Source: a virus. Taken from it: a stretch of 64,000 nucleotides of DNA. The translations under genes and the position numbers were made by a program. Below are positions 5,620 to 64,000 of the stretch, piece by piece; position 1 is the stretch's first letter, and the number at the start of each line of letters is the position of its first letter. The notes under the pieces are model-generated. The model searched no databases. It was not told where the DNA came from and worked only from the letters and a program-made list of their open reading frames with translations. The DNA lies in IMG/VR virus record IMGVR_UViG_3300033074_002003; one strand, written 5' to 3'.

Positions 5620-6260
5620 GCTATACCTTTGACGGCGCGAATAAGAGGATCATCATTACAGGGACTGATACGTTCTCTGCGACAGATCTCTATTCGCGCT
5701 GGAAGGATTGGGTTCAGACATCTGACAATTCGAAGTATGATGAGGCATTTCGCGCCGTTGGCGGCGACCCGATCGGTCCTGGACAGACGATTGCGCCGTA
5801 CTTCTTTCTCAACACGACAGACGGTTGGAGGATAAGACCCGACGAATCAGATCACGAGCTGCGCATTACGGGTAACCTGTACTCTGAAGACTCGACACTC
5901 TCGATGTTTGTTCCGACTGTGGGTGGGTATACCGTGACTGTCGTCATCGAGAGGTCTTCTGCGGCTATTGCTGTGACAGTTGGTGGTGTAGACCAAGCGA
6001 CTGTACAGGCGGCGCTCACGGCACAGGGATACACTACGTCTAGGTCTGCAAAGATTGACAACCTTGATGCAACTGTGTCGTCTGTCGCGCTAACCCCCAC
6101 ACAACAGACAATGCTGCTAGAGATGTACAGGCTCCTCGGTCTCGATCCTACGAAGCCCCTCGTGCTAACTGACACATCTCGTTCGGTGGGTGGCGGCGCT
6201 GGGATCGAACAGACGATCACAGAGGGCCCAGCAAATACGTTCACAGTTCAGAGGGTGTGA
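5616..6260 (+). CDS. Hypothetical structural protein.
   Basis: A 214-aa ORF translationally coupled to the upstream fibre-like gene. Confidence 0.55.
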   Translation: MSYTFDGANKRIIITGTDTFSATDLYSRWKDWVQTSDNSKYDEAFRAVGGDPIGPGQTIAPYFFLNTTDGWRIRPDESDHELRITGNLYSEDSTLSMFVPTVGGYTVTVVIERSSAAIAVTVGGVDQATVQAALTAQGYTTSRSAKIDNLDATVSSVALTPTQQTMLLEMYRLLGLDPTKPLVLTDTSRSVGGGAGIEQTITEGPANTFTVQRV

Positions 6261-6640
6261 TGCTTAACGTTCGCTCTGTGGCGGTCGAGGGCATTGGGTT
6301 CGGCCCGCTCGCACTCGCGAAGATGGGATTCATCGACCTACTCGAAGAGGCACCCGCGGACGCCGAGACACAACAGGTACAAGGTCCCTGGCGTCGGTGG
6401 GGATCTTCTGCGAGGTCTCGAAGTGAGAGAGACGAAAATCGCGAAATCTATGTCGTCGTTCGTCTCAATACGAAACTCATAGAGGGCGAAGAACCACTCG
6501 TGGGACGACAGAGAATGAAGATCGACGCGAAACCGATCAAGATATCGACTTCGGGCGTGTCTGTTGAGAGGTCTGAGATCAGCGTCGTCGCAGAGGGACC
6601 GACAGTCACTAGAAAATCGCACGCGAGGAAATTTGTGTGA
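6257..6640 (+). CDS. Hypothetical protein.
   Basis: A 127-aa ORF whose start overlaps the upstream stop (GTGATG). Confidence 0.4.
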   Translation: MMLNVRSVAVEGIGFGPLALAKMGFIDLLEEAPADAETQQVQGPWRRWGSSARSRSERDENREIYVVVRLNTKLIEGEEPLVGRQRMKIDAKPIKISTSGVSVERSEISVVAEGPTVTRKSHARKFV

Positions 6641-6646
6641 TACTTA
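6639..6646 (+). promoter_or_regulatory. ATACTTA motif instance (GATACTTA), 22 nt upstream of the 6668 start.
   Basis: Recurring motif; see findings. Confidence 0.3.
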
Positions 6647-6667
6647 TGCGAAGCGAGAGGGCACAAA

Positions 6668-7204
6668 ATGGAGAGAGTCGAGCTGAAGCTTGATGAAGCT
6701 AGCGACCTGACGTTCAAGGTCATGATCGAGGGGACGAAAGAGTCCGCTTCAGAAATTCGCCTCATCTGCATCGGAGACGACGTTTCGTACGTCTTCAAGG
6801 GTACAATGACAGAAGAGGTGAACGAGGTCCGCGTTGCCGTCCCCTCAATGAAGGACAAGATCAAAGAGGGTCTCTACGAGACGAAGCTGGAAGTCATCAT
6901 CGAGGGGCGGTGCATCTCACCACTCCAGTTCCTCACGAATTTCAAAGAGGGCGTGAAGGTCGTCGCAGAATCCGTGAAGATCGCTGAGAAGCCACACTCG
7001 TCCGGTCCACAGGTCACGGCTTCTGTCGTCGGGAAACCGATCGTTGTCACGAAGAGGGTCGCGCCCGTCGAAGAGCGACCAAAAGAGACTGTCACAAAAG
7101 AAGCGCAAGTAGAGGCAGTTCGACCCGCAGCGGTTGTCACCGAAGAGGCTTCACCACCTGTCACGTTGCGTCAGCTGTATTCGACCAAGAAATCGAAGAA
7201 GTAA
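6668..7204 (+). CDS. Hypothetical protein with a K/E/V-rich C-terminal tail.
   Basis: A 178-aa ORF with an aagg-type RBS upstream. Confidence 0.55.
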   Translation: MERVELKLDEASDLTFKVMIEGTKESASEIRLICIGDDVSYVFKGTMTEEVNEVRVAVPSMKDKIKEGLYETKLEVIIEGRCISPLQFLTNFKEGVKVVAESVKIAEKPHSSGPQVTASVVGKPIVVTKRVAPVEERPKETVTKEAQVEAVRPAAVVTEEASPPVTLRQLYSTKKSKK

Positions 7205-7226
7205 CGCAGGGGTCACCAGATAATTC

Positions 7227-7260
7227 TGCCCGTGTCATACGTAACCATATGACACGGGCA
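7227..7260 (+). promoter_or_regulatory. A 13-bp perfect inverted repeat (TGCCCGTGTCATA - 8 nt - TATGACACGGGCA) whose right arm contains the ATG of the patatin-like gene. Candidate translational attenuator and/or terminator for the upstream gene.
   Basis: Read directly from the sequence. The right arm spans 7248..7260 and the ATG is at 7249..7251. Confidence 0.5.
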
Positions 7261-8118
7261 TTGGTACTTTCTGGGGGTGCTTGCAAGGGAAGCTATCAGG
7301 TCGGCGTGCTCCGCAAGTGGATGCTTGAGGAGCGCCGAGAGTACGACATCTTCTGTGGAGTCTCTGTCGGCGCGCTCAATGTTTCGCTCCTCGCGCACTA
7401 CAGGGACTCGCGCGAGGCACAGTTCGCTCTCGAAAATGTGTGGAGGCATCACGTAAGCAATGACGCGATCTATCGGAGGTGGTTCCCATTTGGGAGGGTC
7501 TCTGGCCTCTGGAAACACTCGCTATTCGACTCGTCTCCCCTCAGAGAGCTCGTCATGTCTCGCATTGATGTGCAGAAGATCAGGGAGTCAGGAAAGAGAC
7601 TGTCTGTCGGAGCTGTCTGTCTTGAGACCGGAGAGAAGGTGTTCGGCACTGAGGAGGACGATAACCTCGCCGAATGGGTCCTTGCGTCAGCGAGCTATCC
7701 GGTTTTTTTCACACCCGTGAACATCGGTGGCAGGTTCTGGTTCGACGGTGCGGTGAAAAACATGACGCCGCTCGGCAGAGCGATCGAGCTCGGCGCGACC
7801 GAAATAGACATGATCGTGTGTAGCAATCCTGATGTGCAGCGTCCGGTTCCGCAGCAACAGAAGTCTTTTCCGCTGTACAGGCAGATTTCGCGCGTCGTTG
7901 ACGTGATGTCGGACCAGGTGCTGCGGACAGACATGCAAATCACGTCACTGAAGAACCAGCTCTCACGAGCCCGCGGCGACCTCAGACCAGTGACAGTCAG
8001 GTACGTCCAACCCGCAGAGCGACTCACAGAAAATTCGTTCGACTTCGATCCTAAGACGATATCCAAGATGATCGAAAAGGGCTATAGAGATGCCTCTGAT
8101 GGAACTCTGATCCTCTGA
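7249..8118 (+). CDS. Patatin-like phospholipase.
   Basis: An oxyanion GGxxKG-like motif (LSGGACKGSYQVGVL), a GxSxG nucleophile (GVSVGA) and a DGA catalytic Asp (FDGAV) appear in canonical patatin order. Confidence 0.8.
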   Translation: MTRALVLSGGACKGSYQVGVLRKWMLEERREYDIFCGVSVGALNVSLLAHYRDSREAQFALENVWRHHVSNDAIYRRWFPFGRVSGLWKHSLFDSSPLRELVMSRIDVQKIRESGKRLSVGAVCLETGEKVFGTEEDDNLAEWVLASASYPVFFTPVNIGGRFWFDGAVKNMTPLGRAIELGATEIDMIVCSNPDVQRPVPQQQKSFPLYRQISRVVDVMSDQVLRTDMQITSLKNQLSRARGDLRPVTVRYVQPAERLTENSFDFDPKTISKMIEKGYRDASDGTLIL

Positions 8119-8154
8119 TGAACATCTTCTGCACATTGTTCTACATTTGCTACA

Positions 8155-8598
8155 ATGATGCGCAAGACACAGGTCACTAGGGCGATCAAGAGGGTCGATC
8201 GCTGGCTGCGACTATCAGGTTGGGATGTTGTGCGGTCTGCAAATGTCGTTGACATGGCAGATTTTGACTCTTGCATCCTCTACAACAAGAAGACACGCAG
8301 TGACGAGTGCATGTTGTATTCTCTGCTTCACGAGTGTGGTCACGTAATCGACGGTGAAGATGCTGTGAGTAGGATTTCTTTCACGGAGCCGAAGAAGAAG
8401 AAGACGAGGAAGTGGCGAGTCGCGGTCGTTGTCGGTGAGATGCGAGCATGGGACTCTGGAGCTCGCCTAGCTTCAACACTTCGAATCAAGATCGACAGGG
8501 AGAAGTTTGACACATACAGGGCGCGCTACCTCGGAAAGTACTTCTACTGGGGCGCTCTCGGAGAAAAAAGCCTATTGAAGAGCGGATATTGTGACTGA
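8155..8598 (+). CDS. Putative HEXXH zinc metallopeptidase-like protein (ImmA/IrrE or SprT-like).
   Basis: The motif LLHECGHVIDG contains HEXXH. The ORF is 147 aa. Confidence 0.4.
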   Translation: MMRKTQVTRAIKRVDRWLRLSGWDVVRSANVVDMADFDSCILYNKKTRSDECMLYSLLHECGHVIDGEDAVSRISFTEPKKKKTRKWRVAVVVGEMRAWDSGARLASTLRIKIDREKFDTYRARYLGKYFYWGALGEKSLLKSGYCD

Positions 8599-8615
8599 GG
8601 AGAATATTTCTAATT

Positions 8616-8689
8616 GGACACGTAGTCTAACTGGCAGCGATGGCCGACTCAAAATCAGCAGTGTGTGGGTTCGAATCCCACCGTGTCCA
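8616..8689 (+). tRNA. tRNA with anticodon CAA. It has type I (short variable arm) geometry, a mismatch in the D-stem and a C-A mismatch in the anticodon stem, so it is non-canonical for tRNA-Leu.
   Basis: Hand-folded. The acceptor pairs GGACACG with CGTGTCC, the T-arm is GTGGG-TTCGAAT-CCCAC, the anticodon loop is CTCAAAA (U33, A37) and the discriminator is A. Confidence 0.5.
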
Positions 8690-8697
8690 CGACAAAT

Positions 8698-8769
8698 AGG
8701 CCCGTGATGTAGCTGGAAGCATTGACGATTCCAAATCGTTACGCGCAGGTTCGAATCCTGCCGGGTCTG
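8698..8769 (+). tRNA. tRNA-Trp (anticodon CCA).
   Basis: Hand-folded. The acceptor pairs AGGCCCG with CGGGTCT (one G-U), the D-arm is ATGT-AGCTGGAA-GCAT, the anticodon arm is GACGA-TTCCAAA-TCGTT and the T-arm is GCAGG-TTCGAAT-CCTGC. Total length is 72 nt. Confidence 0.8.
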
Positions 8770-8776
8770 CGAAAAT

Positions 8777-8848
8777 GTCCCTGTAGCTCAGGAGAAGAGC
8801 GGGCGCCTTCTAAGCGCAAGGTCGGGGGTGCGAATCCTCCCAGGGATG
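8777..8848 (+). tRNA. tRNA-Arg (anticodon TCT). CCA is encoded immediately 3' at 8849..8851.
   Basis: Hand-folded. The acceptor pairs GTCCCTG with CAGGGAT, the D-arm is GCTC-AGGAGAA-GAGC, the anticodon loop is CTTCTAA and the T-arm is GGGGG-TGCGAAT-CCTCC. Confidence 0.75.
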
Positions 8849-8862
8849 CCAAGGAAAGAAAG

Positions 8863-9039
8863 ATGCTAATTTCCCCCACGAAGAAGAAGATCGAAGAGCT
8901 GACACAGAGAATTCGCGAGATCAAGAGCGCGAAGGTCCCAGCAGAAGATGTAGCCGAACTCGAGACAGAGCTCAATCAGCTGAAAGAGCAAGTCGAGCAA
9001 GAGTCACAGTCGCAGGGTTCCGCTCTTCTCAAGGGCTGA
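8863..9039 (+). CDS. Small coiled-coil protein. The track ORF 8722..9039 would overlap the tRNAs, so the likely true start is the internal Met at 8863.
   Basis: An aaggaaag RBS precedes the ATG at 8863. The sequence has a K/E-rich heptad-like pattern. Confidence 0.4.
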   Translation: MLISPTKKKIEELTQRIREIKSAKVPAEDVAELETELNQLKEQVEQESQSQGSALLKG

Positions 9040-9069
9040 TTTTACCTCGTTTACGCTACGGAGTCTAAG

Positions 9070-10071
9070 ATGTCTGAATGGCTGCCCGAGGTTGTCAGGA
9101 TCGGTGAGGTATTTCCTCACCCAAATCGAGATCACGCCGATCCGAAGTTGAAATGTGATACGCTTTCGCTGACGATGGTTCACGGTGGCTATCCCGTGCT
9201 CTTTCGTACGGGCGAGTTCAAAGAGGGAGACCTCGCTGCCTACGTGCCGATCGATTCGGTCGTCCCAGAGAACCACCCGCTCTTTTCTTTCCTGGGTGAC
9301 AGCCGCAGGATCAAGGCGAAGAGGATGCGTGGCGTATTCTCGATGGGAATGCTCGTGAGAGCACCGGACGGTCTCGCGGAGGGTTCTTCTGTCGTCGAGG
9401 CACTGAACCTCACGAAGTACGAGCCCAAAGAAGAGACGCTGAAGATGTCGAGGGGTGTGAGCATCCCGGGACCCTCGGGATGGGAATTTCCGAAGTACAC
9501 AGACATAGAAGGAATTAGGCGCTACAAGCACGTCCTCCTCGAGGGTGAGGAAGTCGTCATCACTGAGAAGATCCACGGGCAGAACGCGCGGTTCTGTTGG
9601 GATCCCGACGACAAGAAGCTGTGGGTCGGATCTCGAACGACGATCAAGAAGCGCGACGCGACCGTGAACTGGTGGCACATCGCAAACAAGCTTGATCTGG
9701 AGGAGAAGCTCGCGAAGTTCCCACTCACGATCTTCTTCGGCGAGGTCTATGGCAAGTCGATTCAGGACCTCGCGTACGGACTCGAGCACAAGGATCTTCT
9801 CATCTTTGACACATTCGACGTGAAGACTGGCACGTACAACGACTGGGACGCGACAGTCGCTCTTGTCAAGGAAGCCGGGCTCAATCTCGTTCCGACGTTG
9901 TATCGCGGCCCGTGGCTCGGGTTTGAGGCACACAAACCCCTCTCGGAAGGAAAGTCTACGATCTGTGATCACATACGCGAAGGGTATGTGGTGAAACCCG
10001 TACACGAGCGCCGGGAACACATGGGACGGGTGATCCTGAAATGCGTGGGTGAAGATTACATGACGAGGTGA
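9070..10071 (+). CDS. RNA ligase 2 (Rnl2)-family ATP-dependent polynucleotide ligase.
   Basis: Motif I is EKIHGQN (KxHG), motif III is FFGEVYG, motif IV is LIFDTFDV and motif V is EGYVVKP. A ggag RBS lies upstream. Confidence 0.8.
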   Translation: MSEWLPEVVRIGEVFPHPNRDHADPKLKCDTLSLTMVHGGYPVLFRTGEFKEGDLAAYVPIDSVVPENHPLFSFLGDSRRIKAKRMRGVFSMGMLVRAPDGLAEGSSVVEALNLTKYEPKEETLKMSRGVSIPGPSGWEFPKYTDIEGIRRYKHVLLEGEEVVITEKIHGQNARFCWDPDDKKLWVGSRTTIKKRDATVNWWHIANKLDLEEKLAKFPLTIFFGEVYGKSIQDLAYGLEHKDLLIFDTFDVKTGTYNDWDATVALVKEAGLNLVPTLYRGPWLGFEAHKPLSEGKSTICDHIREGYVVKPVHERREHMGRVILKCVGEDYMTR

Positions 10072-10086
10072 CCGATACATATAAGA

Positions 10087-10953
10087 ATGACATACGAACG
10101 AAATTGTCCTCAATGTGCTAAGCAGATTACGTATAAAAACAAGCGTGTCTGTGAACGTGCCGAAGAATCAGGAAAACTCTGTGGATCGTGCGCTCGCAAA
10201 GAAGTATGGAATAGAGCTGATAGCTCATTTCGTTCTGATGTCACATGTGCAAAACGCAGCAAAGGGATGAAAGAAGCCTGGAAACGTCCTGATCATGGTA
10301 GAAAAAGCGAAGCATCAAAACGCTCATTCTCCGAGAAACGCAGAGCAATGCGTGAAGATCCCACTGCAGTTTACAACACAAAGAGTTTTCGTGACAAAGT
10401 ATCACAAGGTGTACGTACTGCACTTTCGAGTTCATTGACGAGGATGCTCGCGTCTGATGTTATTGCACGACGAAATGCATCAATAAAAAAGATGTGGACA
10501 GTTGAACGTCGAGATCAACATCGTGAACTGATGACTCGTTTGTGGAGTGTGACAAAAACTCCTTGGGAACACGAAAAAGGTTGTTGTGTTTCACAGTTTG
10601 AATTGAAATTTAAAGACGCTCTGCGAGAAAATGGTTTCTATCACTCTTCCGAACGTTCTGGATCGCTACGATGCATCGATCGATATATTCCTGACTACGT
10701 CGATCATGTGACAAAGCGTGTCGTTGAATTCAATGGCGACTATTGGCACTGTAATCCTAAGCATGAAGTGTTCGGAGATCCGACGTGGTACAACAAGAGT
10801 ATCAAAATGACTTCTCAAGAGAGATGGGAACATGACAAACGCCGCGAAGCAGTGATCTGCGAACATGGGTTTCACGTGATCGTAATTTGGGAAAGTGAAG
10901 CTAGTGATGAAACAAGCGTACTTTTGCGTGTCCAATCATCTGGTTCAATTTGA
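10087..10953 (+). CDS. Free-standing homing-endonuclease-like protein: N-terminal Cys cluster, NUMOD3-like repeats and a C-terminal Vsr-like nuclease domain.
   Basis: The N-terminus carries CPQC...CGSC. Repeats of the S.E.KR..S..G type follow. The C-terminus reads EFNGDYWHCNP...W..K...RWEHDKRREAVICEHGFHVIVIWESE, a Vsr/PD-(D/E)XK signature. GC content is visibly lower than in the flanks. Confidence 0.7.
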   Translation: MTYERNCPQCAKQITYKNKRVCERAEESGKLCGSCARKEVWNRADSSFRSDVTCAKRSKGMKEAWKRPDHGRKSEASKRSFSEKRRAMREDPTAVYNTKSFRDKVSQGVRTALSSSLTRMLASDVIARRNASIKKMWTVERRDQHRELMTRLWSVTKTPWEHEKGCCVSQFELKFKDALRENGFYHSSERSGSLRCIDRYIPDYVDHVTKRVVEFNGDYWHCNPKHEVFGDPTWYNKSIKMTSQERWEHDKRREAVICEHGFHVIVIWESEASDETSVLLRVQSSGSI

Positions 10954-11079
10954 GACAAGTGAAGCTCAACTAAAGACGTCCCAGAAAGTCAAATTGATAG
11001 TAGGTGAACATCTATACTGACCTTGTGTAAGTTCTGAGTGTGGTGAGCTTCAATAGCCACACAAGGAAAGGTACAGAGA

Positions 11080-11340
11080 ATGTCAGTAGAGAAGTATACG
11101 CGCCGCCGCGTCACGAACAAGGACGCGAGGATCGTCACAGAGTACAACAGCGGTGCACGCATCACCCGTACCGCTTTCAGGAGCGAGGGCACGTTGAAGG
11201 TGAGCGTGAAGACGCAGGACAACTTCACCTCGCTCAGGGTTCGCTTCCCCGATGGGTTTCACGAGTACTTCAATGGTCGCGAGGCCCGCACCATCTACCG
11301 CGCTCTGAAGGCGCACTACAGCCAGTTCGGCACCGAGTAG
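11080..11340 (+). CDS. Hypothetical small protein.
   Basis: An 86-aa ORF with an aaggaaagg RBS, followed by a terminator. Confidence 0.5.
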   Translation: MSVEKYTRRRVTNKDARIVTEYNSGARITRTAFRSEGTLKVSVKTQDNFTSLRVRFPDGFHEYFNGREARTIYRALKAHYSQFGTE

Positions 11341-11360
11341 TAGCCGTCAGAAGAAGTAGA

Positions 11361-11387
11361 GAAGGGCCCTTCTGGGCCCTTCTTGTT
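11361..11387. terminator. Bidirectional rho-independent terminator (GAAGGGCCC-ttct-GGGCCCTTC, then TTGTT) between convergent genes.
   Basis: A 9-bp GC-rich perfect stem has A-rich sequence upstream and T-rich sequence downstream. It sits between the + gene 11080..11340 and the - gene 11389..11766. Confidence 0.6.
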
Positions 11388-11388
11388 A

Positions 11389-11766
11389 TCACGTGACTTC
11401 TATCTTTCGTTTCTGCGAACCTTCTTTTTTCGGTATTTTGAGATGTAGCACGCCTGCATCGTATTTTGCTGTCATAGAGCCCACGTCATAGCTTTCGTTC
11501 ACAACGAACGTCTGCGAAATAGACTTGCTTGTCCCGACGCTTTTCTTTGCAGCGACAGAGACATTACGGCCCGTGCACTCTACGGTGATGTCCTCTTTGA
11601 GACACCCGGGAACGTCAAAGAAAATCGTGAGCCCATTTTCGTCAGTGCTCTTTTCGAACTTGTGATATCGATCGTCGTCAGCAAAGAGTTCAGAACGAAA
11701 CAGGCGAGCGAGCTGAAGTTCAGGGTACATGTTTTTCCTCCGTGCTCGCAACGATAAAACACACAC
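11389..11766 (-). CDS. Small heat-shock protein of the Hsp20/alpha-crystallin family. The start may be the internal Met, which would give 11389..11730.
   Basis: The alpha-crystallin domain is recognisable: FDVPGCLKEDITVE...VSV...SQTF..E...D...AKYDAGVLHLKIPK. Confidence 0.8.
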   Translation of the reverse strand: MCVLSLRARRKNMYPELQLARLFRSELFADDDRYHKFEKSTDENGLTIFFDVPGCLKEDITVECTGRNVSVAAKKSVGTSKSISQTFVVNESYDVGSMTAKYDAGVLHLKIPKKEGSQKRKIEVT

Positions 11767-12548
11767 AACGAAGCGTACATACCATGATCACAGAATTTGA
11801 TCGAAAAATGAAGTCTCTCGAGAAGTTTTCTTCACAGAGCGTTCCCAGTGGGACGTCTTTTGTTGTGAGGCTCGACGGTAGGTCATTTTCAAAGATGACA
11901 GAGAAGCACTTCAGGAAGCCATTTGACCCGCTGTTCAGCGCGATCATGGATAGAGTGACTGATAGCCTCGTGCGTGAGTTTGATTGCGTCGCGGCATTCA
12001 CACAGAGCGATGAGATTTCGCTGCTGTTTGCACCCGAGAACAAGCTATTTGCCGGCCGGCTCGAGAAAATTGTGAGCGTCACGGCATCGCACGCGTCCGC
12101 TGTGTTCACGAGGGCGTTCACTGACATCGTTACGTTTGACAGTCGAGTGATCGTTCCCGACAGCATCGGCGACCTGTCTTCTTACTTCACGTGGAGATTT
12201 GTGGACGGGTGCAGAAATGCGCTTAACACTGCGTGCTACTGGAACATGCGACAGTCGGGTGAGTCACGCCGTGCGGTGTCGAGGCGACTCGAGAGTGTCT
12301 CCCAGAACGAGAAGCTAGAACTTCTTGGGCAGAGGTGGGAGGACATCGATGAGAGGTTTCGGTTCGGACGTGTAACCGTGTGGGAACAATTCGAAGTAGT
12401 GGGATACAATCCCGTATTGAAAGAAGAGAGGAAGGCTACGCGCAGAGAGCTCGTGAGCTTTACCGATCCGAAGAAATTCACAGAGCTGCGTCACAAATGG
12501 TTCGCAGCAGAGAAAGAGAAAGAAGATGCGAGCAGCCTGGCTATCTGA
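11742..12548 (+). CDS. Thg1-like protein (tRNA-His guanylyltransferase family, 3'-5' nucleotidyltransferase).
   Basis: VVRLDGRSFSK...KPFD aligns with Thg1 VVRIDGKKFHEF...KPND. TQSDEISLLF aligns with GESDEYSFIL. FDSRVIVP aligns with FDSRCVAYP. WRFVDG aligns with WRYVDT. Confidence 0.9.
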   Translation: MLATIKHTQRSVHTMITEFDRKMKSLEKFSSQSVPSGTSFVVRLDGRSFSKMTEKHFRKPFDPLFSAIMDRVTDSLVREFDCVAAFTQSDEISLLFAPENKLFAGRLEKIVSVTASHASAVFTRAFTDIVTFDSRVIVPDSIGDLSSYFTWRFVDGCRNALNTACYWNMRQSGESRRAVSRRLESVSQNEKLELLGQRWEDIDERFRFGRVTVWEQFEVVGYNPVLKEERKATRRELVSFTDPKKFTELRHKWFAAEKEKEDASSLAI

Positions 12549-13323
12549 CATTCACCTCACTGACATTGCGGAGGACAGGGCTCTCGCCTTCTGTGAGAAG
12601 GTACGTGAGCACGAGTGTGATTCTGTCTTTCTCACCGGAGACATCTCAGAGTCGCCCGTCCTCCTCCAACACCTGAAGCTTCTCGACGCGAACATTCAGA
12701 AGCCGATCTACTTCGTGCTCGGAAATCACGATTTCTGGTATTCTTCTGTCCCACACATCTACAACACACTCCCACAGGCGATCTCTGGCCTGAACTTTGT
12801 GCGCTGGATGACAAATCTCGGGCCGCTGCGTCTAGATGACGGAGTCTGCGTCGTAGGTCACGACGGGTGGTATGACTGTAGGGCGGGAGACGTCCGCAAC
12901 TCTCGTTTCATCATGCCAGAGTGGAGCAAGCAGCAGGACTACCAGGGTTCTCGTACGATCGACGACATCATTGAGAAGTCCCAGGCGATGTCAAATCTCT
13001 CGATTACACATTTCAAGAAAGTATTGCCAGATGCTATCGCAAGGTTTGACAAGATCTATATCCTCACACACGTCCCACCATTTGAGGAAACGCACTATCA
13101 CGGTGGCGTGCAAGGAACACCACATTACCAGCCCTACTTTGTCAACAAGATCCTCGGTGAACTCCTCAGAACCGCCGCAAGCCTGCATCCGCGTAAGCAG
13201 TTCGTCGTCCTCGCTGGTCACAGTCACGGACGCGTGAGCAAGACAATCCTTCCGAATCTGACCGTGCACGTTGCGGGAGCACAGCATGGCGCGCCCGAAA
13301 TTCAGCCATTTGTATTCACGTGA
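12526..13323 (+). CDS. Calcineurin-like metallophosphoesterase.
   Basis: The motifs VFLTGDISE, LGNHDFW and GHSHG match metallophosphoesterase motifs I to V. The start overlaps the end of the Thg1-like gene. Confidence 0.8.
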   Translation: MRAAWLSDIHLTDIAEDRALAFCEKVREHECDSVFLTGDISESPVLLQHLKLLDANIQKPIYFVLGNHDFWYSSVPHIYNTLPQAISGLNFVRWMTNLGPLRLDDGVCVVGHDGWYDCRAGDVRNSRFIMPEWSKQQDYQGSRTIDDIIEKSQAMSNLSITHFKKVLPDAIARFDKIYILTHVPPFEETHYHGGVQGTPHYQPYFVNKILGELLRTAASLHPRKQFVVLAGHSHGRVSKTILPNLTVHVAGAQHGAPEIQPFVFT

Positions 13324-13339: not shown

Positions 13340-13696
13340 ATGATTAGGGACCTCGTTCGAGCGATCATTGTCGAAGAGCTCGAGTCGATGAAGAACGACT
13401 ACGTCGTATCTCAGGACCTCGCACAGAAGAAAATTCGTCCCGTGACGTCTGAAGACGTCAAGATTCGATTCCCTGAGTTTCATACGCGTGTTGCAGAGGC
13501 GCTTTTTGAAGAAGAACGTATTGCTGACCTTCGCGGGATGAAGTGGGCATTCTACGCTAGCTCGTATTCACGGGTGACGCCATTTGCGTATGATCCCGTT
13601 ACGGGGGCCGTGTGTTACTGGCACGCTCCCTCACAGCGCGTCAAGCAGTCCGAAAATTCAGAGATCGACAACGCGATAATTCAGATGTCTCGGTGA
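13340..13696 (+). CDS. Hypothetical protein.
   Basis: A 118-aa ORF. Confidence 0.45.
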   Translation: MIRDLVRAIIVEELESMKNDYVVSQDLAQKKIRPVTSEDVKIRFPEFHTRVAEALFEEERIADLRGMKWAFYASSYSRVTPFAYDPVTGAVCYWHAPSQRVKQSENSEIDNAIIQMSR

Positions 13697-14664
13697 ATTT
13701 CATCGTCTGACATCTTGAAAAGTTCACATATTTGACCATCATCAGGTTCCCAGACAACAAATGACATGTTGTTTTGCTTGCAGTATAGAGCAGCAGCTTC
13801 AAATTTTGGGATATTTTTGTCACGAAGTTTGGCGGGTTTGACTTCTACAATGAACGTCTTCCCTGCGTTCGTGTGTACGATAAAATCGGGAACGTAGAAA
13901 TGCTCCGTGCCGTCAACACCAGTGTATTGAATGCGTAGCGATTCATATTCCCACGCGATAACCGACTCAGTTTCATCGAGCTCAATCATCGCTTTTAGTT
14001 CATATGATGACTTGTAGCGACACAAGTTTTTCACGGATTTGTGAGGCGCGTATTCTCCACGTTGCCAAATTCGTTCATTGTTGATTAGCTTTTTTGACAT
14101 CACTTCTGAGAGATGCTGTCGAGTTTTTTCATACGTTCCACACAACGCTCTAGTGTTGTATGTTTTCTTGCAAGAAGCGTCACGGCGAATCCTAATTTCG
14201 GGATTTTTGGCCCAAAACTCTTTCCAGTTTTCGCTCATTTTTTGTCTGAACTCAACAGACGTTGTTGCTTTACGTACAGCTTCACTACGTCGTCTGAGTA
14301 CATTGTCTGTCAAAAAATCGCGCATACGTTGTGCACGGAGCTTGCCCTCTTCAGCGTGCTCAGCGTAGTAACGTTTCATGTTTTTTGAATTTTTCACACC
14401 AACCAGTCGCTTGGTTTCTTCTGACATGGACACTTCATTGTGACCCCGAACATAGAAGTTGAAAGTACATGTGACATCATGAAATTTGACAGCAATACCA
14501 CATCCACATTTACACACTGGCCGTTTTCCGCCATGTTGTGTTTGGATTGCATACAGTTCCCAATCGAGATCGTGTTCAGATTTAACATGTTTGCGTAATT
14601 TTACGTTTGAATTGCTTTCAAACGCACAGATTGCACATTTTCGAATTTGCCAAGTCACAGTCAT
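13681..14664 (-). CDS. Homing-endonuclease-like protein with a C2H2-like zinc finger, a CKCGCG motif, NUMOD3-like repeats and a PD-(D/E)XK nuclease domain.
   Basis: The N-terminus carries CAICAF...HVKSEH and CKCGCGIAVKF. The C-terminus reads YVPDFIVH...IVEVKP. The gene is on the opposite strand to its neighbours and is AT-richer than the flanks. Confidence 0.7.
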   Translation of the reverse strand: MTVTWQIRKCAICAFESNSNVKLRKHVKSEHDLDWELYAIQTQHGGKRPVCKCGCGIAVKFHDVTCTFNFYVRGHNEVSMSEETKRLVGVKNSKNMKRYYAEHAEEGKLRAQRMRDFLTDNVLRRRSEAVRKATTSVEFRQKMSENWKEFWAKNPEIRIRRDASCKKTYNTRALCGTYEKTRQHLSEVMSKKLINNERIWQRGEYAPHKSVKNLCRYKSSYELKAMIELDETESVIAWEYESLRIQYTGVDGTEHFYVPDFIVHTNAGKTFIVEVKPAKLRDKNIPKFEAAALYCKQNNMSFVVWEPDDGQICELFKMSDDEIHRDI

Positions 14665-14714
14665 AGATATGTCGATGCTTAGACTGTGATACTACATTTG
14701 TAGTAGATGTGTCA

Positions 14715-55490: not shown

Positions 55491-58400
55491 ATGACACAAG
55501 CACAGCAATCACAGGCAAAGAGTTTCAGCAGTGACGAAGTTGTAGAGAGAACGGCAGAGTATTTCGGCGGCGATAAGATGGCAGGAGCTGTATTCTTGAA
55601 GTACGCTCTGCCTGCAGATGACGGCGGTTTCTTGGAACTGTCGCCGCCTGACATGCACGCTAGACTCGCTAGAGAATTGGCTCGGATAGAGAACAGATAC
55701 TCTAACCCAATGTCCGAGGAAGAAATTCTAGGGTTGCTCAGCAGGCCCTCGCACAGGAAGCTGGGCATGGGTCCCATCATCCCGCAGGGCTCGCCGATGG
55801 CGGGCATCGGAAATACGAAGCAGTTCCAGAGCATCTCAAATTGCTTCGTGATCGACTCTCCTTACGACTCTTTCGGGGGAATCTTCCATACTGACGAGGA
55901 AGAGGCCGAGATCATGAAGAGGCGCGGGGGTGTCGGATTTGACGTCTCGACGCTTCGCCCGAAAGATGTGAAGACCTCGAACGCTGCTGGCACGACAGAC
56001 GGCATCGGTGTGTTCCTCGAGCGCTACAGCGCGACATGTCGCGGCACCGCACAGAACGGACGCCGCGGCGCGCTCATGCTCACGATCTCAATCAGACACC
56101 CCGAGATCGAGACGTTCATCAACATCAAGCGTGACCTGAAGAAGGTGACAGGCGCAAACATCTCAATCCGTGTCACAGACGACTTCATGGTTGCCGTCGA
56201 GAACGATGAATACTTCACGCTGCAGTGGCCGGTAGACGTGCCGCTCTCAGAGGCGAAGATCACTCGAGAAGTCAGAGCTCGTGACATCTGGGACCAGATC
56301 ATCGATGCGGCCTGGAACAGCGCCGAGCCCGGTGTTCTCTTCTGGGATACCGTGAAGAGAAATTCTCCGGCTGACGCATACGCCTCGGTTGGATTTAGTT
56401 CAGTCTCGACAAATCCATGTGTTGTAGGAGACACGTTGATCGCTGTTGCTGACGGTAGAAATGCTGTGTCAATTAGACAATTGGCAGAAGAGGGTCGCGA
56501 CGTACCTGTGTATTCTACTGATATTGCTACAGGAAAGGTTGAGATCAAGTGGGGAAGATCTCCTAGACTGACAAAAGTTCAAGCAGAGGTTTGGAAACTG
56601 ACACTTGATGATGGCACGTGTGTCATTGCGACACCTGATCACAAGATTTTGCTTAGAAATTTGACGTATGTGAATTTGCAGGATCTCAAGTCAGGTGACT
56701 CAATTTTCCCATTTTCGACGTTCGACTCTAATGGATATCGTCAGGTATGCAATACTGGCGTACCCATGACGGGTGGTGCAAGGCGGAACAGACGTCAATA
56801 TCGACTGATTCACGAATTTTTTAACGGGAGCACTGATTCAAAGTTGTTTGCGATTCATCATTGTGATTTTGATTCTAGAAATGACAGAATCGAAAACTTG
56901 AAAGTGATGACGCACGATGAACATCGAGAACTACATTCGCGCCTAATGATTGGTGATAATAATCCGTATCACAGGATGTCATCTGAATGGAAGCTAAAGT
57001 TTGCAAAACATTCTGGCGAATCTAATGGTAGATTTTCGGGCCACACTAACGAGCAGCTTCTAGAAGCTGGGCGTCGTGTATTCGAAGAAAATGGAAAGAT
57101 AACACGAGCTCTTTGGAAAGAATATGCCAAGAAGCACGCGTTCCCGCAATTTCTTGCAAATCAATTTAGATTTGGAAGTTGGCAAAATTTTGCCAACCAA
57201 GTCTCGAGCAATCACAAAGTTGTTTCTGTTGAAAAAATCGGTACAGAAGACGTTTACAACATCACCGTAGATGACAATCACAACTACCACGTCATCACTT
57301 CTTTGGACGAAAATGGTGTTGTCTCTTCTGGTATTTGTGTCAAAAATTGTGGGGAAATTCCTCTTTCGAGTGGGGACTCGTGCCGGCTACTCGTAATCGA
57401 TCTCACACATTTCGTCGTTTCGCCATTTACCCCCGAGGCTCACTTTGATTTCACTGAGTTTGAAAGGGTCGTCGGAAAGGCCCAGCGACTCATGGACGAT
57501 ATCGTTGACCTCGAGGTCGAAGCAGTCGACAGGATCATCGAGAAGATCGAGTCAGATCCAGAACCCGAGTACATCAAGGCACGCGAGCTCTCACTCTGGC
57601 GTCGAATCAGGGACACTGGGTTGAGAGGACGCAGGACCGGATTCGGTGTCACCGCGCTGGGCGACGCCCTCGCTCTTCTTGACCTGAAGTACGGACAGTT
57701 CGATGCGATCTCGATGACCGATCGAATCTATCGTAGCTTGGCACTGGGCGCCTACAGGTCGAGCGTCGACCTCGCGGAAGAGCGGGGCGCGTTCCCGGCA
57801 TACGATCCGAAGCTCGAGGCCGGTCACCCGTTCTTGAGTCGCATCCGCGCCGAAGATCCAGCTCTCGCAGAGAAGATGGATCGCGTCGGGCGTCGAAACA
57901 TCGCGCTCACGACAACTGCGCCGGTCGGTTCTACCTCGATGCTCACGCAGACTACAAGCGGTATCGAGCCGCTGTTCAAGCCGTTCTACGTCCGGAAAAA
58001 GAAGGTCAGCGGCGCGACGGAACCGAACGCAGAGCTGATCGTCGACGAGATGGGCGATAGGTGGCAGAAGTTCAACGTCTACCATCACTACCTCAAAGAG
58101 TGGATGGACATCACTGGGAACTCTAACATTGACGAGTCTCCGTATGCAGGTGCCTCGGCAAACGAAATCGACTGGCTTGGGTCTGTCGCGATGCAGGCCG
58201 CTGCACAGAAGTGGGTGTGTCACAGCATCTCAAAGACGTGCAACCTGCCGAAAGACGTGAGCCATGATGTTGTGTCTGACGTCTACATGAATGCGTGGAA
58301 GACGGGTTGCAAGGGCTTCACGATCTACAGGGACGAATCTAGAGACGGCGTGCTCGTGTCTGAGGACGCTGTGATGTTCGACGTGAAGAAGCGCACAGAT

Positions 58401-59141
58401 GGCGTTCCCACACGTGAGCTCGAGCGACAGGTCGAGATCGGCGAGCGCTTCGCGAAGTACATGCCGTCCGGGTATGTCTCATTCCTGCAACAGGTGAGAG
58501 ACGCGATCGCCGCGCGCAAAAACCCATCGCTCGGGGCCGTCGTAGATCGCGTAGTCGAGACGAAGCTGCACTCAGAGAAGAGGCCCAAGGAACTTCCTTG
58601 CGAAATTCACCGTGTCAACGTGAGGGCGAAAGACGACAGCGGCGACATCACGACACAGACGTACATCGTGCTTCTTGGCTTGTTGAACGGGAAGCCCTAT
58701 GAGATCTTCTGCGGCCTCTCGGAACACGTCGACGTTCCGAAGAAGTGCAAGAATGGCGTGCTCGTGAAGAATGGCAAGAAGGCCGGCGTCGCGACGTACA
58801 ACCTCAGGATCCCGATCGGAGACGATGACGACGCGATCGTGCTGAAGGACGTCGTGAATCTCTTTGAGAACGCCACATACGGTGCTTTCACGAGGATCCT
58901 GTCCCTCGCGCTGCGCCACGAGATTCCGCTGCAATTTGTTGTGGAACAGCTGCAGAAGGACAAGTACTCAGACATGCAGAGTTTTTCTCGTGTCATTGCG
59001 AGGGTCCTGAAGCACCACATTCTAGACGGTACGCCCGTCTCGGGTGAGAAGAAGTGTGATAGCTGCGGGGCCGAGGGGACGCTTGTCTACGAGGAGAAGT
59101 GTACCAAGTGCACCGCGTGCGGGAACGGGAAGTGCGGATAG
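55491..59141 (+). CDS. nrdJ: Class II (adenosylcobalamin-type, NrdJ-like) ribonucleotide reductase interrupted by an intein immediately before the catalytic NPCGE cysteine.
   Basis: ISNCFV, GGVGFDVSTLRP and a C-terminal zinc ribbon (CDSCGAEG...CTKCTACGNGKCG) are present. The extein junction reads STNP|C...N|CGEIPL. Confidence 0.85.
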   Translation: MTQAQQSQAKSFSSDEVVERTAEYFGGDKMAGAVFLKYALPADDGGFLELSPPDMHARLARELARIENRYSNPMSEEEILGLLSRPSHRKLGMGPIIPQGSPMAGIGNTKQFQSISNCFVIDSPYDSFGGIFHTDEEEAEIMKRRGGVGFDVSTLRPKDVKTSNAAGTTDGIGVFLERYSATCRGTAQNGRRGALMLTISIRHPEIETFINIKRDLKKVTGANISIRVTDDFMVAVENDEYFTLQWPVDVPLSEAKITREVRARDIWDQIIDAAWNSAEPGVLFWDTVKRNSPADAYASVGFSSVSTNPCVVGDTLIAVADGRNAVSIRQLAEEGRDVPVYSTDIATGKVEIKWGRSPRLTKVQAEVWKLTLDDGTCVIATPDHKILLRNLTYVNLQDLKSGDSIFPFSTFDSNGYRQVCNTGVPMTGGARRNRRQYRLIHEFFNGSTDSKLFAIHHCDFDSRNDRIENLKVMTHDEHRELHSRLMIGDNNPYHRMSSEWKLKFAKHSGESNGRFSGHTNEQLLEAGRRVFEENGKITRALWKEYAKKHAFPQFLANQFRFGSWQNFANQVSSNHKVVSVEKIGTEDVYNITVDDNHNYHVITSLDENGVVSSGICVKNCGEIPLSSGDSCRLLVIDLTHFVVSPFTPEAHFDFTEFERVVGKAQRLMDDIVDLEVEAVDRIIEKIESDPEPEYIKARELSLWRRIRDTGLRGRRTGFGVTALGDALALLDLKYGQFDAISMTDRIYRSLALGAYRSSVDLAEERGAFPAYDPKLEAGHPFLSRIRAEDPALAEKMDRVGRRNIALTTTAPVGSTSMLTQTTSGIEPLFKPFYVRKKKVSGATEPNAELIVDEMGDRWQKFNVYHHYLKEWMDITGNSNIDESPYAGASANEIDWLGSVAMQAAAQKWVCHSISKTCNLPKDVSHDVVSDVYMNAWKTGCKGFTIYRDESRDGVLVSEDAVMFDVKKRTDGVPTRELERQVEIGERFAKYMPSGYVSFLQQVRDAIAARKNPSLGAVVDRVVETKLHSEKRPKELPCEIHRVNVRAKDDSGDITTQTYIVLLGLLNGKPYEIFCGLSEHVDVPKKCKNGVLVKNGKKAGVATYNLRIPIGDDDDAIVLKDVVNLFENATYGAFTRILSLALRHEIPLQFVVEQLQKDKYSDMQSFSRVIARVLKHHILDGTPVSGEKKCDSCGAEGTLVYEEKCTKCTACGNGKCG
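56418..57347 (+). mobile_element. Intein of 310 aa with an embedded HNH homing-endonuclease domain inside nrdJ.
   Basis: It starts with CVVGDTLIAV (block A) and ends VYNITVDDNHNYHV...NGVVSSGICVKN followed by C (blocks F/G). HNH reads HHCDFDSRNDRIENL...HDEH. The intein is about 42% GC versus about 58% in the flanking extein. Confidence 0.8.
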
Positions 59142-61459: not shown

Positions 61460-61647
61460 TGTCGTTTCTGAAGGCAATCGGGTGGGTAGTTCTGGGTCTG
61501 TTCGCAATCGAGGTCGCGGGCTGTGCGTGGGTGTTCTCGCAGCACGAAGCCTGTCCGGATGGTTACGATCCCCAGGTACAGGGTTGTAAGGGAATGCCGA
61601 AGGCGGGCGCGTCTTCGTCGGCAACTGACGCAGGGAGTGACGGATGA
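61459..61647 (+). CDS. Small membrane protein with a single predicted transmembrane helix.
   Basis: AIGWVVLGLFAIEVAGCAWVF is a hydrophobic segment. Confidence 0.4.
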   Translation: MSFLKAIGWVVLGLFAIEVAGCAWVFSQHEACPDGYDPQVQGCKGMPKAGASSSATDAGSDG

Positions 61648-62183
61648 TCAACGTTTCATCCACGGCACCCATGTGGACGGGCGGGAATACATTTCCGCTC
61701 GCTAACGGGACAGGTGTTAGACCGCTTACAGTCGATCAGACTGCAAAACCCCTTCGATTCGGAGACGAATCCACGCCAGTGCTTCCGGACATGTGGCCAA
61801 TGCCGTATGAGGTCATACCTACCAAGAAAATCGTGCCAAATCCACCGGCGAGTGAGGAGATCTTGCGGCGGTGGATTTCTATGCAAGGTGAGCACAACAA
61901 TCTCGTTTCTAGCTTTAGGACGGAAACTGTAGGTGAACGTCTCATTGCTGCGATTGACATCCCGGGTGTCAAGAAGGGAACAGTTGATGTATCACTCGAT
62001 GGTGCTGTGATTTCTGTTGTGTGCACGCGAGCTGATATAGGCACGCTTGTCAGCGCGAAATATACAGTCCCGCGCGAGTATTCTGTGTCACCTGACGATA
62101 TCGAGGCGTGGCACGATGACGGTGTTCTCTCGATCGCGTTTATGCGAATTTCGCAGGGACGCGTCAAAATCGGTGTGAAGTAA
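61644..62183 (+). CDS. Hypothetical protein.
   Basis: A 179-aa ORF. Confidence 0.45.
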   Translation: MINVSSTAPMWTGGNTFPLANGTGVRPLTVDQTAKPLRFGDESTPVLPDMWPMPYEVIPTKKIVPNPPASEEILRRWISMQGEHNNLVSSFRTETVGERLIAAIDIPGVKKGTVDVSLDGAVISVVCTRADIGTLVSAKYTVPREYSVSPDDIEAWHDDGVLSIAFMRISQGRVKIGVK

Positions 62184-62199
62184 TTCCTTTCTGAACACA

Positions 62200-62232
62200 C
62201 TGCATGCACTCTGTAATATGAGTGCATGCAGT
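62200..62232 (+). promoter_or_regulatory. A 12-bp inverted repeat (CTGCATGCACTC - 8 nt - GAGTGCATGCAG) whose right arm contains the ATG of the nucleotidyltransferase gene.
   Basis: Read directly from the sequence. This is the same arrangement as the hairpin at 7227..7260. Confidence 0.45.
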
Positions 62233-63308
62233 TTGACGTTTCAGAGCGGACGATTTACCTCGCAGTTCACGGCAGTACCGCGTACGGCACGAATACACCC
62301 GAGTCAGATCTTGATATCAAGGGTGTGTGTGTTCCACCCGCGTGTTACTACACGGGTTTTTCGTATGTCTTCGAGCAGGAAGAGCGTATGGTGTCGAAAG
62401 GTCACTCAGAGGACAGGGTCACCTATTCCGTGGAGAAGTTCTTCTCGCTCGCAGCGGATTGCAATCCCAACATCATCGAGGTGCTGTTCGTTGACGATTC
62501 AGACGTCCTGAAGTGCAATGACCTCGGGAAGCTGATGAGGGAAAATCGCGATCTCTTCCTCTCGAAGAGAGCGAAGCACACATTCAGTGGGTACGCACAC
62601 GCGCAGCTTCACAGGATCCAGACGCATCGCAGGTGGTTGCTCGACGCCTCGAAGTACGAGTCAACGCTTCCAAAGCGCAGCGATTTCGACCTGCCCGAAT
62701 TCGAGTCCAAGAAGGACGCGAACCAGATTCTCACCGCCCTCGCTCTTGTCCAGAAGAGGCTCGACGAGTGGAACGTTGACTTCAGAGAATTTGACAACGC
62801 CGAGAGGATTCGCCTACAGAACAAGCTCGCCCAATTTTTCGTGGAGGCTGGCGTCCTCGGCGATGACCTCTGGTCTCGAGCGGCCCAGGCTGTTTTCGGC
62901 GTGGACGAGAACCTGATCCATCGCCTACAACGCGAACGCGCGTACGCGAATCAGTGCTCTGACTGGGAGAAGTACGCTAACTGGAAGCGTTCGCGCAATC
63001 CGAAGCGCGCTGCTCTCGAGGCGAAGTTTGGGTACGACACGAAGCACGGCGGCCATTTGATCCGTCTCATGAGGATGTGCAAGGAAATCCTCTCAGGACA
63101 GGGCGTCATCGTGAAGCGACCCGATGCCAAGGAGATCCTCGCGATCAGGAACGGCTTGTGGTCGTATGAGAAGCTCATCGAGGAGTCTGAGAAGCTCGAG
63201 GCAGAGTGCAACGCGCTCTACGATACGTCAGCGCTTCCGCACAAGCCGAACGTTGCGCGACTTAATGAGTTGTGTTCGCAGATCGTGACACTTGGGATAG
63301 TGAGGTAG
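62226..63308 (+). CDS. Pol-beta-superfamily nucleotidyltransferase of unknown specificity.
   Basis: VHGSTAYGTNTPESDLDIKGV is a GS-x9-DxD NTase motif. The remaining ~300 aa form a helical C-terminal domain. Confidence 0.65.
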   Translation: MQFDVSERTIYLAVHGSTAYGTNTPESDLDIKGVCVPPACYYTGFSYVFEQEERMVSKGHSEDRVTYSVEKFFSLAADCNPNIIEVLFVDDSDVLKCNDLGKLMRENRDLFLSKRAKHTFSGYAHAQLHRIQTHRRWLLDASKYESTLPKRSDFDLPEFESKKDANQILTALALVQKRLDEWNVDFREFDNAERIRLQNKLAQFFVEAGVLGDDLWSRAAQAVFGVDENLIHRLQRERAYANQCSDWEKYANWKRSRNPKRAALEAKFGYDTKHGGHLIRLMRMCKEILSGQGVIVKRPDAKEILAIRNGLWSYEKLIEESEKLEAECNALYDTSALPHKPNVARLNELCSQIVTLGIVR

Positions 63309-63309
63309 C

Positions 63310-64000
63310 ATGTCACACTTTTCTTGGCCCGAAATTGACGGATTTCACTCGGTGAGGCGAACTCTCGTTCACTACCCGCACCTTTTGGGCGGAAGAAATA
63401 CAGTCACGTACCGTGGGAAGGTGAAGCTTCACGGCACAAACGCGGGGATTTACTTCCGTGCGGGCAGATTCACGGCGCAGAGCAGGACGGCTGTCATTAC
63501 GCCGACGTCTGACAACATGGGATTCGCGAAGTGGGTCGACGAGAGGACAGACGCGCTCGCGGAAGCATACAAGCGCATGGACAGTGACACGGTCATCTTC
63601 GGTGAGTGGTGCGGGCCGAGCGTCCAGCGCGGCGTTGCGCTCTCACAGCTCAAGGAACGCATCTTTGCAGCCTTTGCTGCCTACAAGATCTCCGCTCGCG
63701 GCGAACCGACAGATGCTCTCGTTACTTCTCCCGAAGAACTCGCCAGACTGGTAGGTGGTATCCCGGGAGCGTATGTCCTGCCCTGGCACGGTGACACGTT
63801 CGACGTCCCGTGGCTCGATCCAGCAGAGGAGCTCGAGCCGATCGTTGCGCGCATCAATGACGTTGTCGCTGATGTGGAAACTGTCGACCCGTGGGTGCGC
63901 GATACATTCGGTGTCGAGGGAACGGGAGAGGGACTCGTCTACTACCCTATCTCACACGGCGGGCGCGAGAACTTCACGAACATGTCCTTCAAGGCGAAGG
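63310..64000 (+). CDS. Second Rnl2-family RNA ligase-like protein, 3'-truncated by the window end.
   Basis: Motif I is GKVKLHGTNAGIYF (compare T4 Rnl2 KIHGTN). Motif III is VIFGEWCG. The frame stays open to the last base. Confidence 0.65.
   Translation, partial: MSHFSWPEIDGFHSVRRTLVHYPHLLGGRNTVTYRGKVKLHGTNAGIYFRAGRFTAQSRTAVITPTSDNMGFAKWVDERTDALAEAYKRMDSDTVIFGEWCGPSVQRGVALSQLKERIFAAFAAYKISARGEPTDALVTSPEELARLVGGIPGAYVLPWHGDTFDVPWLDPAEELEPIVARINDVVADVETVDPWVRDTFGVEGTGEGLVYYPISHGGRENFTNMSFKAK

Follow-up and report, generated by a model that had tools for sequence, protein, structure and literature searches.

Cleavage of tRNA is among the commonest anti-phage strategies, used by PrrC, RloC, PARIS, Cas13, Cas12a3, retron effectors, OLD and Schlafen, and defence nucleases that nick tRNA stems are known (PMC12916289). 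Phage counter-measures other than spare tRNAs and the Pnkp/Rnl1 of T4 are experimentally almost unexplored. In comparative genomics, Anantharaman, Iyer and Aravind (2010; PMC2904730) described neighbourhoods of Thg1, PNK, MACRO and RNA ligase genes, predicted a repair role for Thg1-like proteins (TLPs) and raised the possibility that phage 201phi2-1 uses its Thg1 to repair RNA against host defences. TLPs mend 5'-truncated tRNAs in vitro, as two studies report (PMC3061083, PMC4820378), and El-Arabi et al. (2013) flagged a Thg1 gene in a Bacillus phage. The jumbo-phage RNA-repair repertoire of Iyer et al. (2021; PMC7824862) comprises, in the passages that bear on it, tRNAs, the ligases Rnl1, Rnl2 and RtcB, Pnk, HAD or calcineurin-like phosphatases, RlaP, a CCA-adding enzyme and, sporadically, Thg1; there Thg1 restores 5' nucleotides and calcineurin-like domains are occasional phosphatases. 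That phage Thg1 takes part in RNA repair is an idea published in 2010 and again in 2021. Here we describe an island at positions 8616–13323 of the viral stretch IMGVR_UViG_3300033074_002003, whose 64,000 nt we call the window, in which three tRNA genes lie beside those of an RNA ligase, a Thg1-like protein and a metallophosphoesterase (MPE).

We put at about 65% the probability that the genes of this island act in the repair or maintenance of RNA, and of tRNA in particular. Direct observation covers the assignment of domains, the intactness of the active sites, the order of the genes, their conservation within the lineage and the recurrent linkage of the Thg1-like and MPE families to RNA-repair genes; the enzymatic steps proposed below would follow from family knowledge and gene context, and our confidence in the specific step of the MPE is much less than that in RNA repair overall. 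An earlier, sequence-only reading of this DNA had proposed a tRNA-repair or counter-defence toolkit. Its domain calls and the linkage to repair genes held up, whereas the novelty that it claimed and the single operon that it implied did not.

Enzymes and tRNAs of the island

The Thg1-like open reading frame (ORF) begins at 11742 or 11784 and ends at 12548 on the + strand; the methionine at 11784 (MITEFD...) is the start common to homologues and gives a protein of 254 aa. Both Pfam domains score above threshold (Thg1 PF04446, 102.1 bits against 29.2; Thg1C PF14413, 33.7 bits against 26.3), bearing out its description as a clear Thg1-like protein. It matches PHROG 4717 (E 2.5e-38), and the PDB entry that it matches best is MaTLP, a TLP of Methanosarcina (5axk). 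Alignment with human THG1 (3otb) places RLDGRSF and SDE of the window protein at the catalytic residues D29, D76 and E77; the two segments also align with 5axk. In an alignment of 15 homologues the corresponding D31, D76 and E77, numbered from the methionine at 11784, are invariant, as are R29, S75 and K95. The catalytic carboxylates on whose retention the sequence-only reading had staked its proposal are all present.

Eukaryotic Thg1 uses a HINNLYN motif for recognition of the tRNA-His anticodon. This motif is not present in the window protein, which has CRNALNTACYW where human THG1 has CHINNLYNTVFW, and the protein is therefore a TLP and not a bona fide Thg1. Because both domains are above threshold, the carboxylates are kept and HINNLYN is absent, we assign it by sequence to the TLP-type 3'-5' nucleotidyltransferases with intact catalytic residues, and predict that it is an active polymerase. 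Such genes have been recorded in phages before, contrary to what the sequence-only reading supposed: besides the PHROG family and the literature of 2010 and 2021, Thg1-like genes are present in 142 records of GenBank phages and, within IMG/VR, in 399 stretches, which are matched regions on viral contigs. Read by eye, the alignment blocks show the C-terminal domain of the phage Thg1 clade to be shortened by a small deletion.

The RNA ligase (333 aa; 9070–10071, + strand) combines an OB domain (aa 25–95; PHA02142, 35.8 bits) with a nucleotidyltransferase (NTase) domain (aa 160–326; Pfam RNA_ligase PF09414, 95.8 bits) that carries the motifs KIHGQN, FGE and EGYVVK. The protein ends 7 residues past the NTase domain and is without a C-terminal domain. 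Its best NCBIfam model is TIGR02306 (DRB0094), at 127.4 bits against a cut-off of 151.15, and its only sequence relatives in the PDB are the Naegleria gruberi RNA ligase entries (5cot/6vt4). On the strength of the OB and NTase architecture, the best model and these PDB relatives, the ligase is, to judge by its sequence, an enzyme of the DraRnl/NgrRnl ("Rnl5") type, with predicted activity. It resembles DraRnl and NgrRnl in its N-terminal OB and C-terminal NTase domains and in its KxxG, FGE and EGxxxK motifs; it differs in that its identity to the PDB entries is low and its score lies under the equivalog cut-off, and it is therefore a divergent relative and not an equivalog. The DraRnl/NgrRnl enzymes (Rnl5; Shuman laboratory) seal 3'-OH/5'-P nicks in duplex RNA. 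The sequence-only reading was right about the ligase domain and its three motifs and wrong to place the protein in the Rnl2 family: the Rnl2 model TIGR02307 reaches 28.2 bits, far below its cut-off of 197.15, and the Rnl2 C-terminal domain is missing.

The MPE (265 aa; 12526–13323, + strand) is a binuclear metallophosphoesterase of the calcineurin-like kind, as had been surmised. It matches PF00149 at 43.5 bits, and all five motifs of the set that we tested (DxH, GD, GNH(D/E), H and GHxH) are invariant in a 46-sequence alignment, as D8, H10, G38-D39, G66-N67-H68-D69, H182 and G231-H232-x-H234. The start codon, an ATG, precedes the stop codon of Thg1 by 23 nt, so that the two genes overlap by 23 nt, in agreement with the overlap noticed from the sequence alone. 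A sequence search against the PDB gave nothing at E <= 1. By structure prediction and fold search, the nearest folds to the predicted model are PptH and GpdQ, and Lmo2642, Rv0805, ADPRibase-Mn and LpxH are also among the closest. A DNA nuclease of the Mre11/SbcD kind, an identity that would have spoken against the sequence-only reading, is not placed closest by this search, and we rejected it. We likewise rejected the Pnkp/lambda-phosphatase branch, with which the MPE has neither sequence nor fold similarity (CthPnkp and lambda phosphatase). The substrate of Mycobacterium tuberculosis PptH (Rv2795c, a phosphopantetheinyl hydrolase; PDB 6unc) is not transferable to the MPE because identity is 14% and the genomic context unrelated. 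The MPE could act by healing 3' ends, or it could convert the 5'-triphosphate or 5'-adenylylated termini that the TLP leaves.

The three tRNA genes open the island on the + strand, and ARAGORN and Rfam both find them where the sequence-only reading had placed its cluster: a tRNA with anticodon CAA, called Leu (8616–8690; Rfam tRNA, 54.3 bits), tRNA-Trp (CCA; 8698–8770) and tRNA-Arg (TCT; 8777–8851). They are spaced by 6–7 nt. Acceptor stems are fully paired in all three, that of tRNA-Trp included; the 3' CCA is encoded in tRNA-Arg and in neither of the others. The CAA tRNA is 75 nt long and class I in shape, with a 5-nt variable region and an A73 discriminator. In that shape it differs from canonical bacterial tRNA-Leu, which is class II (its codon is UUG). 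Two related phages, L093 and L094, have a normal Leu(CAA) of 87–88 nt, and L093 adds a 72-nt CAA tRNA (5985–6056).

Given these tRNAs, it is very unlikely that the Thg1-like protein serves routine tRNA maturation, whether by adding G-1 to tRNA-His, the canonical Thg1 role, or by correcting the 5' ends of phage tRNAs packed 6–7 nt apart, although phage genome papers annotate the gene in this way. There is no tRNA-His among the three tRNAs of the window or in the tRNA clusters of its relatives, and three fully paired acceptor stems need no 5' editing; for the same reason we rejected a mitochondrial-like editing of mismatched 5' ends in the adjoining tRNAs. The lack of HINNLYN argues in the same direction. 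Bacterial G-1 is genome-encoded, according to passages of Rao et al. (PMC3061083), and cellular TLPs pair with a polynucleotide-kinase-like gene, a partnership that indicates broken 5'-OH ends.

Gene order and transcription units

The proteins of the window occur identically on a 305,889-bp metagenomic contig (ENA ERZ4198739 NODE_15) and on about 20 shorter contigs; the source is an uncultured jumbo phage with a parent contig of about 306 kb. Megablast of a 4.8-kb region against 50,697 GenBank phages returned no match, and hence there is no cultured close relative among them. The island is flanked by tail-fibre-like genes on one side and by neck and sheath genes on the other (gp13-like at 14707, sheath at 20913).

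Gene order was compared with three relatives, L007, L093 and L094, whose structural proteins are 58–77% identical to those of the window. All three have, on one strand, the tRNAs followed by the ligase, an ORF of about 88 aa, Thg1, the MPE, an ORF of about 130 aa and gp13. Identity to the window proteins is 66–68% for the ligase, 46–51% for Thg1 and 52–55% for the MPE, and the Thg1/MPE junction is either a 4-nt overlap or a gap of about 2 nt. The small ORFs of the window are a 58-aa ORF between the tRNAs and the ligase (8863–9039, + strand; 45–54% identity in related phages), an 86-aa ORF (11080–11340, + strand) that in this lineage always stands between ligase and Thg1, and a 118-aa ORF after the MPE (13340–13696, + strand), which keeps its position in the relatives at 31–35% identity and for which homologues were found inside the lineage only. 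Members of the 86-aa ORF family are small proteins of about 75–124 aa with a conserved N-x-x-A-R-I ... G-R-E-A-R-T-L-Y-R-x-L-x-x-H-Y. The AlphaFold2 (AF2) model of the window member (pLDDT 86) has a five-strand beta meander and a C-terminal helix, and a fold search with it gave no convincing match. The family motif is repeated 16 times within one protein of 1825 aa.

An 11-bp GC-rich hairpin at 11359–11384, terminator-like on both strands (z = -5.2 for the + and -3.65 for the - strand), lies between the 86-aa ORF and a convergent Hsp20 gene. All three relatives have a canonical hairpin-plus-U-tract terminator between the small ORF and Thg1. Since the terminator hairpin is at the same place in the window and in its relatives, the ligase unit and the Thg1–MPE unit are probably adjacent, separate transcripts. 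The first unit consists of the three tRNAs, the 58-aa ORF, the Rnl5-type ligase and the 86-aa ORF, and the second of the TLP, translationally coupled to the MPE, and the 118-aa ORF, all on the + strand. Coupling is confined to Thg1 and the MPE. Of the single operon implied from the sequence alone this pair survives; the ligase, set apart from Thg1 by the terminator and by the Hsp20 gene on the opposite strand, does not belong to it. Scans with sigma-70 and terminator consensus sequences were weakly above shuffled expectation, and a candidate promoter motif found upstream of Thg1 in two relatives, TTGTAAAT, showed no enrichment in the window.

Three further genes interrupt the island or its edge in the window phage. 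A Vsr/DUF559-like endonuclease (10087–10953, + strand) follows the ligase, the Hsp20/alpha-crystallin gene (11389–11730, - strand; PF00011) precedes Thg1, and a TnsA-like endonuclease with an N-terminal zinc finger (13681–14664, - strand) follows the 118-aa ORF; both endonucleases are probably homing endonucleases. None of the three is at the island in L007, L093 or L094, and we therefore regard them as insertions in the window phage. In the near-identical contig L001 the copy of the Vsr/DUF559-like gene is 33 nt shorter. Hsp20-type genes stand beside RNA-repair genes in three cases: in the ligase/Thg1 interval, as a weakly Hsp20-like ORF at 61644–62183 (+ strand) just upstream of an RlaP gene in the same window, and in another jumbo phage near RlaP, Pnkp and MPE genes (L008, 3338–3721). 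Upstream of the tRNAs (7249–8598) are a patatin-like phospholipase, weakly like the model of the cGAMP-activated lipase of CBASS, and a 147-aa ORF with an HExxH motif (LLHECGH), both kept in L093. Farther off, the ribonucleotide reductase large subunit gene (55491–59141) is interrupted by an intein that contains an HNH endonuclease domain, according to the Pfam labels of the parent contig.

RNA-repair neighbours and the proposed pathway

A second RNA-repair cluster lies about 50 kb from the island in the same phage. It is opened by an RlaP nucleotidyltransferase (PF10127; 62226–63308, + strand) and continues with an Rnl2-like RNA ligase of 334 aa (63310–64000, + strand; best PDB match T4 Rnl2, 2hvq) that runs beyond the window end. 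There the ligase gene is followed on the parent contig by an ORF of 185 aa and by a Pnkp of the T4 type (AAA_33 kinase and HAD_PNKP), the whole cluster spanning 62226–64000 of the window and 10001–13592 of L092. Hidden Markov models of kinases matched nothing in the window, the Pnkp gene being just past its end. The second cluster supplies the 5' kinase that is missing from the island and shows that the phage invests in two RNA-repair gene sets of different composition. The analogy with T4 drawn from the sequence alone thus stands as regards an RNA ligase with end-processing enzymes and fails as regards a 5' kinase within the island, the T4-type Pnkp being about 50 kb away.

We then examined the neighbourhoods of 80 viral Thg1 loci, 80 cellular TLP loci and 80 viral loci of the MPE family. 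Of the 80 cellular TLP loci, 55 have an AAA_33 P-loop kinase no more than 300 nt away, and Pnkp (kinase–MPE–ligase) is nearby in 5–8; Pnkp genes are 0.7–1.8 kb from TLP genes in L101, L121 and L144, a kinase–MPE–Rnl1 fusion directly follows Thg1 in L164, and an Rnl5-type ligase is just upstream of Thg1 in a Gemmataceae genome (L149). The viral Thg1 loci have seven Rnl5-type ligase matches within 5 kb, against one at 5–10 kb, and a P-loop kinase within 1 kb in six cases. L053 and L087, which are unrelated phages, have the genes of Thg1 and an Rnl5-type ligase directly next to each other, in opposite orders. The pair is set in both among NAD+ salvage genes (NAPRTase/NAMPT, Nudix, NAD synthase). 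Directly 3' of Thg1 in L053 is a tRNA with the amber-reading anticodon CTA (10945–11019; Pyl according to ARAGORN), a hint that L053 reassigns or suppresses a stop codon.

The MPE family is tied to RNA repair in its own right. A PF09414 ligase lies within 1 kb of the viral MPE gene in 11 of the 80 loci and at 1–8 kb in none; 2 loci have an Rnl1-type ligase within 1 kb. Pnkp-like kinases occur in 19 loci, RlaP in 22 and Thg1 in 2. At least one RNA-repair marker is present in 31 loci, typically in an array of RlaP, Pnkp, ligase and MPE. After clustering, markers are borne by 23 of 60 clusters at 70% identity and by 10 of 30 at 50% identity, so the linkage is recurrent although not every locus is independent. 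In L245, a phage of 38% GC, Thg1 overlaps an MPE that is 29% identical to that of the window. Two genes upstream of this overlapping pair is a SpoU-family RNA 2'-O-methyltransferase (5850–8789 for the segment), which recalls the Hen1 of bacterial Pnkp systems. Together these statistics support a tie of both the TLP family and the MPE family to RNA-repair genes.

The same counts bear on a different role for the MPE, namely hydrolysis of small phosphodiesters or pyrophosphates, for example an immune signal that is a cyclic nucleotide or is derived from ADP-ribose, by an enzyme that merely shares the Thg1 operon. Its fold neighbours PptH, GpdQ, the cyclic-nucleotide phosphodiesterases Lmo2642 and Rv0805, ADPRibase-Mn and LpxH would suit such a role, homologues are named Icc/CpdA in databases, bacterial homologues stand alone (for example in L009), and passages of PMC7824862 predict that calcineurin-like phosphodiesterases of jumbo phages counter nucleotide signals. 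What makes this unlikely is the company that the family keeps, with RNA ligases within 1 kb in 11+2 of the 80 phage loci and members inside RlaP–Pnkp–ligase arrays, together with a start codon that overlaps Thg1 in two unrelated lineages.

Whether the island genes belong together at all can be judged from the same data. Tail-fibre and neck/sheath genes enclose a hypervariable accessory slot, which also holds the patatin-like lipase, Hsp20 and the two homing-endonuclease-like genes that vary among relatives; a terminator divides the cluster, and the immediate neighbours of phage Thg1 are heterogeneous. The proximity of the genes might on these grounds reflect tolerance of insertions by unrelated passengers. 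We think this quite improbable, as the order ligase–small ORF–Thg1–MPE has been kept while the structural proteins diverged to 58–77% identity, and as the combinations recur with non-orthologous parts in L053, L087, L149, L164, L245 and the RlaP–Pnkp–ligase–MPE arrays.

Several observations weigh against a joint role of these genes in RNA repair. Viral Thg1 loci are without a dominant partner, a kinase or ligase being within 5 kb in 16 of 80 and tRNAs within 5 kb in 11 of 80. Outside the lineage, the MPE family of the window is found near Thg1 in L084, L245 and L251 only. A conserved terminator splits the ligase from Thg1–MPE. Synteny inside one phage lineage is by itself weak evidence, and phylogenetic relatedness links many of the loci scanned. 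Finally, the literature searched yielded no experimental study of a phage TLP.

If the island does act in RNA repair, its course might be as follows. Host tRNA-targeting nucleases would break tRNAs during infection, and lost tRNA species would be replaced by phage tRNAs. The Pnkp kinase of the second cluster, acting in trans with RlaP, would phosphorylate 5'-OH ends, and a 3'-phosphate or cyclic phosphate would be removed by the Pnkp HAD domain, the MPE or both. The TLP could then activate the 5'-phosphate end and rebuild missing 5' nucleotides in the 3'-5' direction, with the paired 3' strand as template, and the ligase would seal 3'-OH/5'-P nicks in double-stranded stems.

A bolder version would make the TLP–MPE pair and the nick-sealing ligase a gap-filling pathway for the double-stranded parts of tRNA, in which the TLP refills the gap, the MPE removes the 5'-triphosphate or adenylate and the ligase seals. 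The trigger would be a stem cut or trimmed by a defence nuclease, one candidate being a TOPRIM effector that, like the one of retron Eco2, nicks acceptor stems. This version is speculative and improbable as a whole. Were it true, the PptH-like MPE family would gain a new RNA 5'-end processing activity, and the pathway would be the first demonstrated biological role of a phage 3'-5' polymerase. The locus offers a compact, conserved gene set with which to ask whether a virus rebuilds tRNA 5' ends by 3'-5' polymerisation, and it also suits asking what a ligase-associated MPE does; both questions are timely, with many tRNA-cleaving defence systems now being discovered.

Comparison with known repair systems

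The concept of Thg1 in RNA repair has been in comparative genomics since 2010, and this island is hence of value as a good test case and for the new statistics on gene neighbourhoods; the idea itself is not new. What may be new is the compact arrangement of Rnl5-type ligase, TLP and PptH-like MPE, with Thg1–MPE coupling in two unrelated lineages, and possibly also the tight adjacency of the MPE family to phage RNA ligases.

The island shares with T4 Pnkp and Rnl1/Rnl2 a phage-encoded ATP-dependent RNA ligase and end-processing enzymes, whose presumed task is to counteract the tRNA nucleases of the host, and the window phage also has a T4-type Pnkp and an Rnl2-like ligase. Unlike the T4 system, the island is without a kinase, its ligase is of the Rnl5 type and not Rnl1 or Rnl2, and its phosphoesterase is a binuclear MPE and not a HAD phosphatase; it adds a predicted 3'-5' polymerase, which T4 lacks. 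Cellular TLPs (PMC2904730 and the relevant passages of Rao et al. 2011, PMC3061083) are alike in TLP-type sequence, in keeping the D/D/E residues and in their association with RNA ligase. They differ in that their kinase neighbour (55/80) is replaced in the window by an overlapping MPE, and in that the phage clade has the C-terminal-domain deletion. Bacterial Pnkp–Hen1, in which kinase, MPE 2',3'-phosphatase and ligase form one polypeptide, likewise combines an MPE with an RNA ligase.

The closest counterpart is the repertoire of Iyer et al. (2021; PMC7824862), which in its relevant passages has the same components and the same proposed purpose. Those passages do not mention an Rnl5-type ligase and a small ORF followed by a TLP/MPE overlap beside tRNAs, nor do they report that this MPE family lies so close to phage RNA ligases. 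Set beside these systems, the island is real and, at the level of prediction, a plausible addition to the known class of phage RNA-repair systems.

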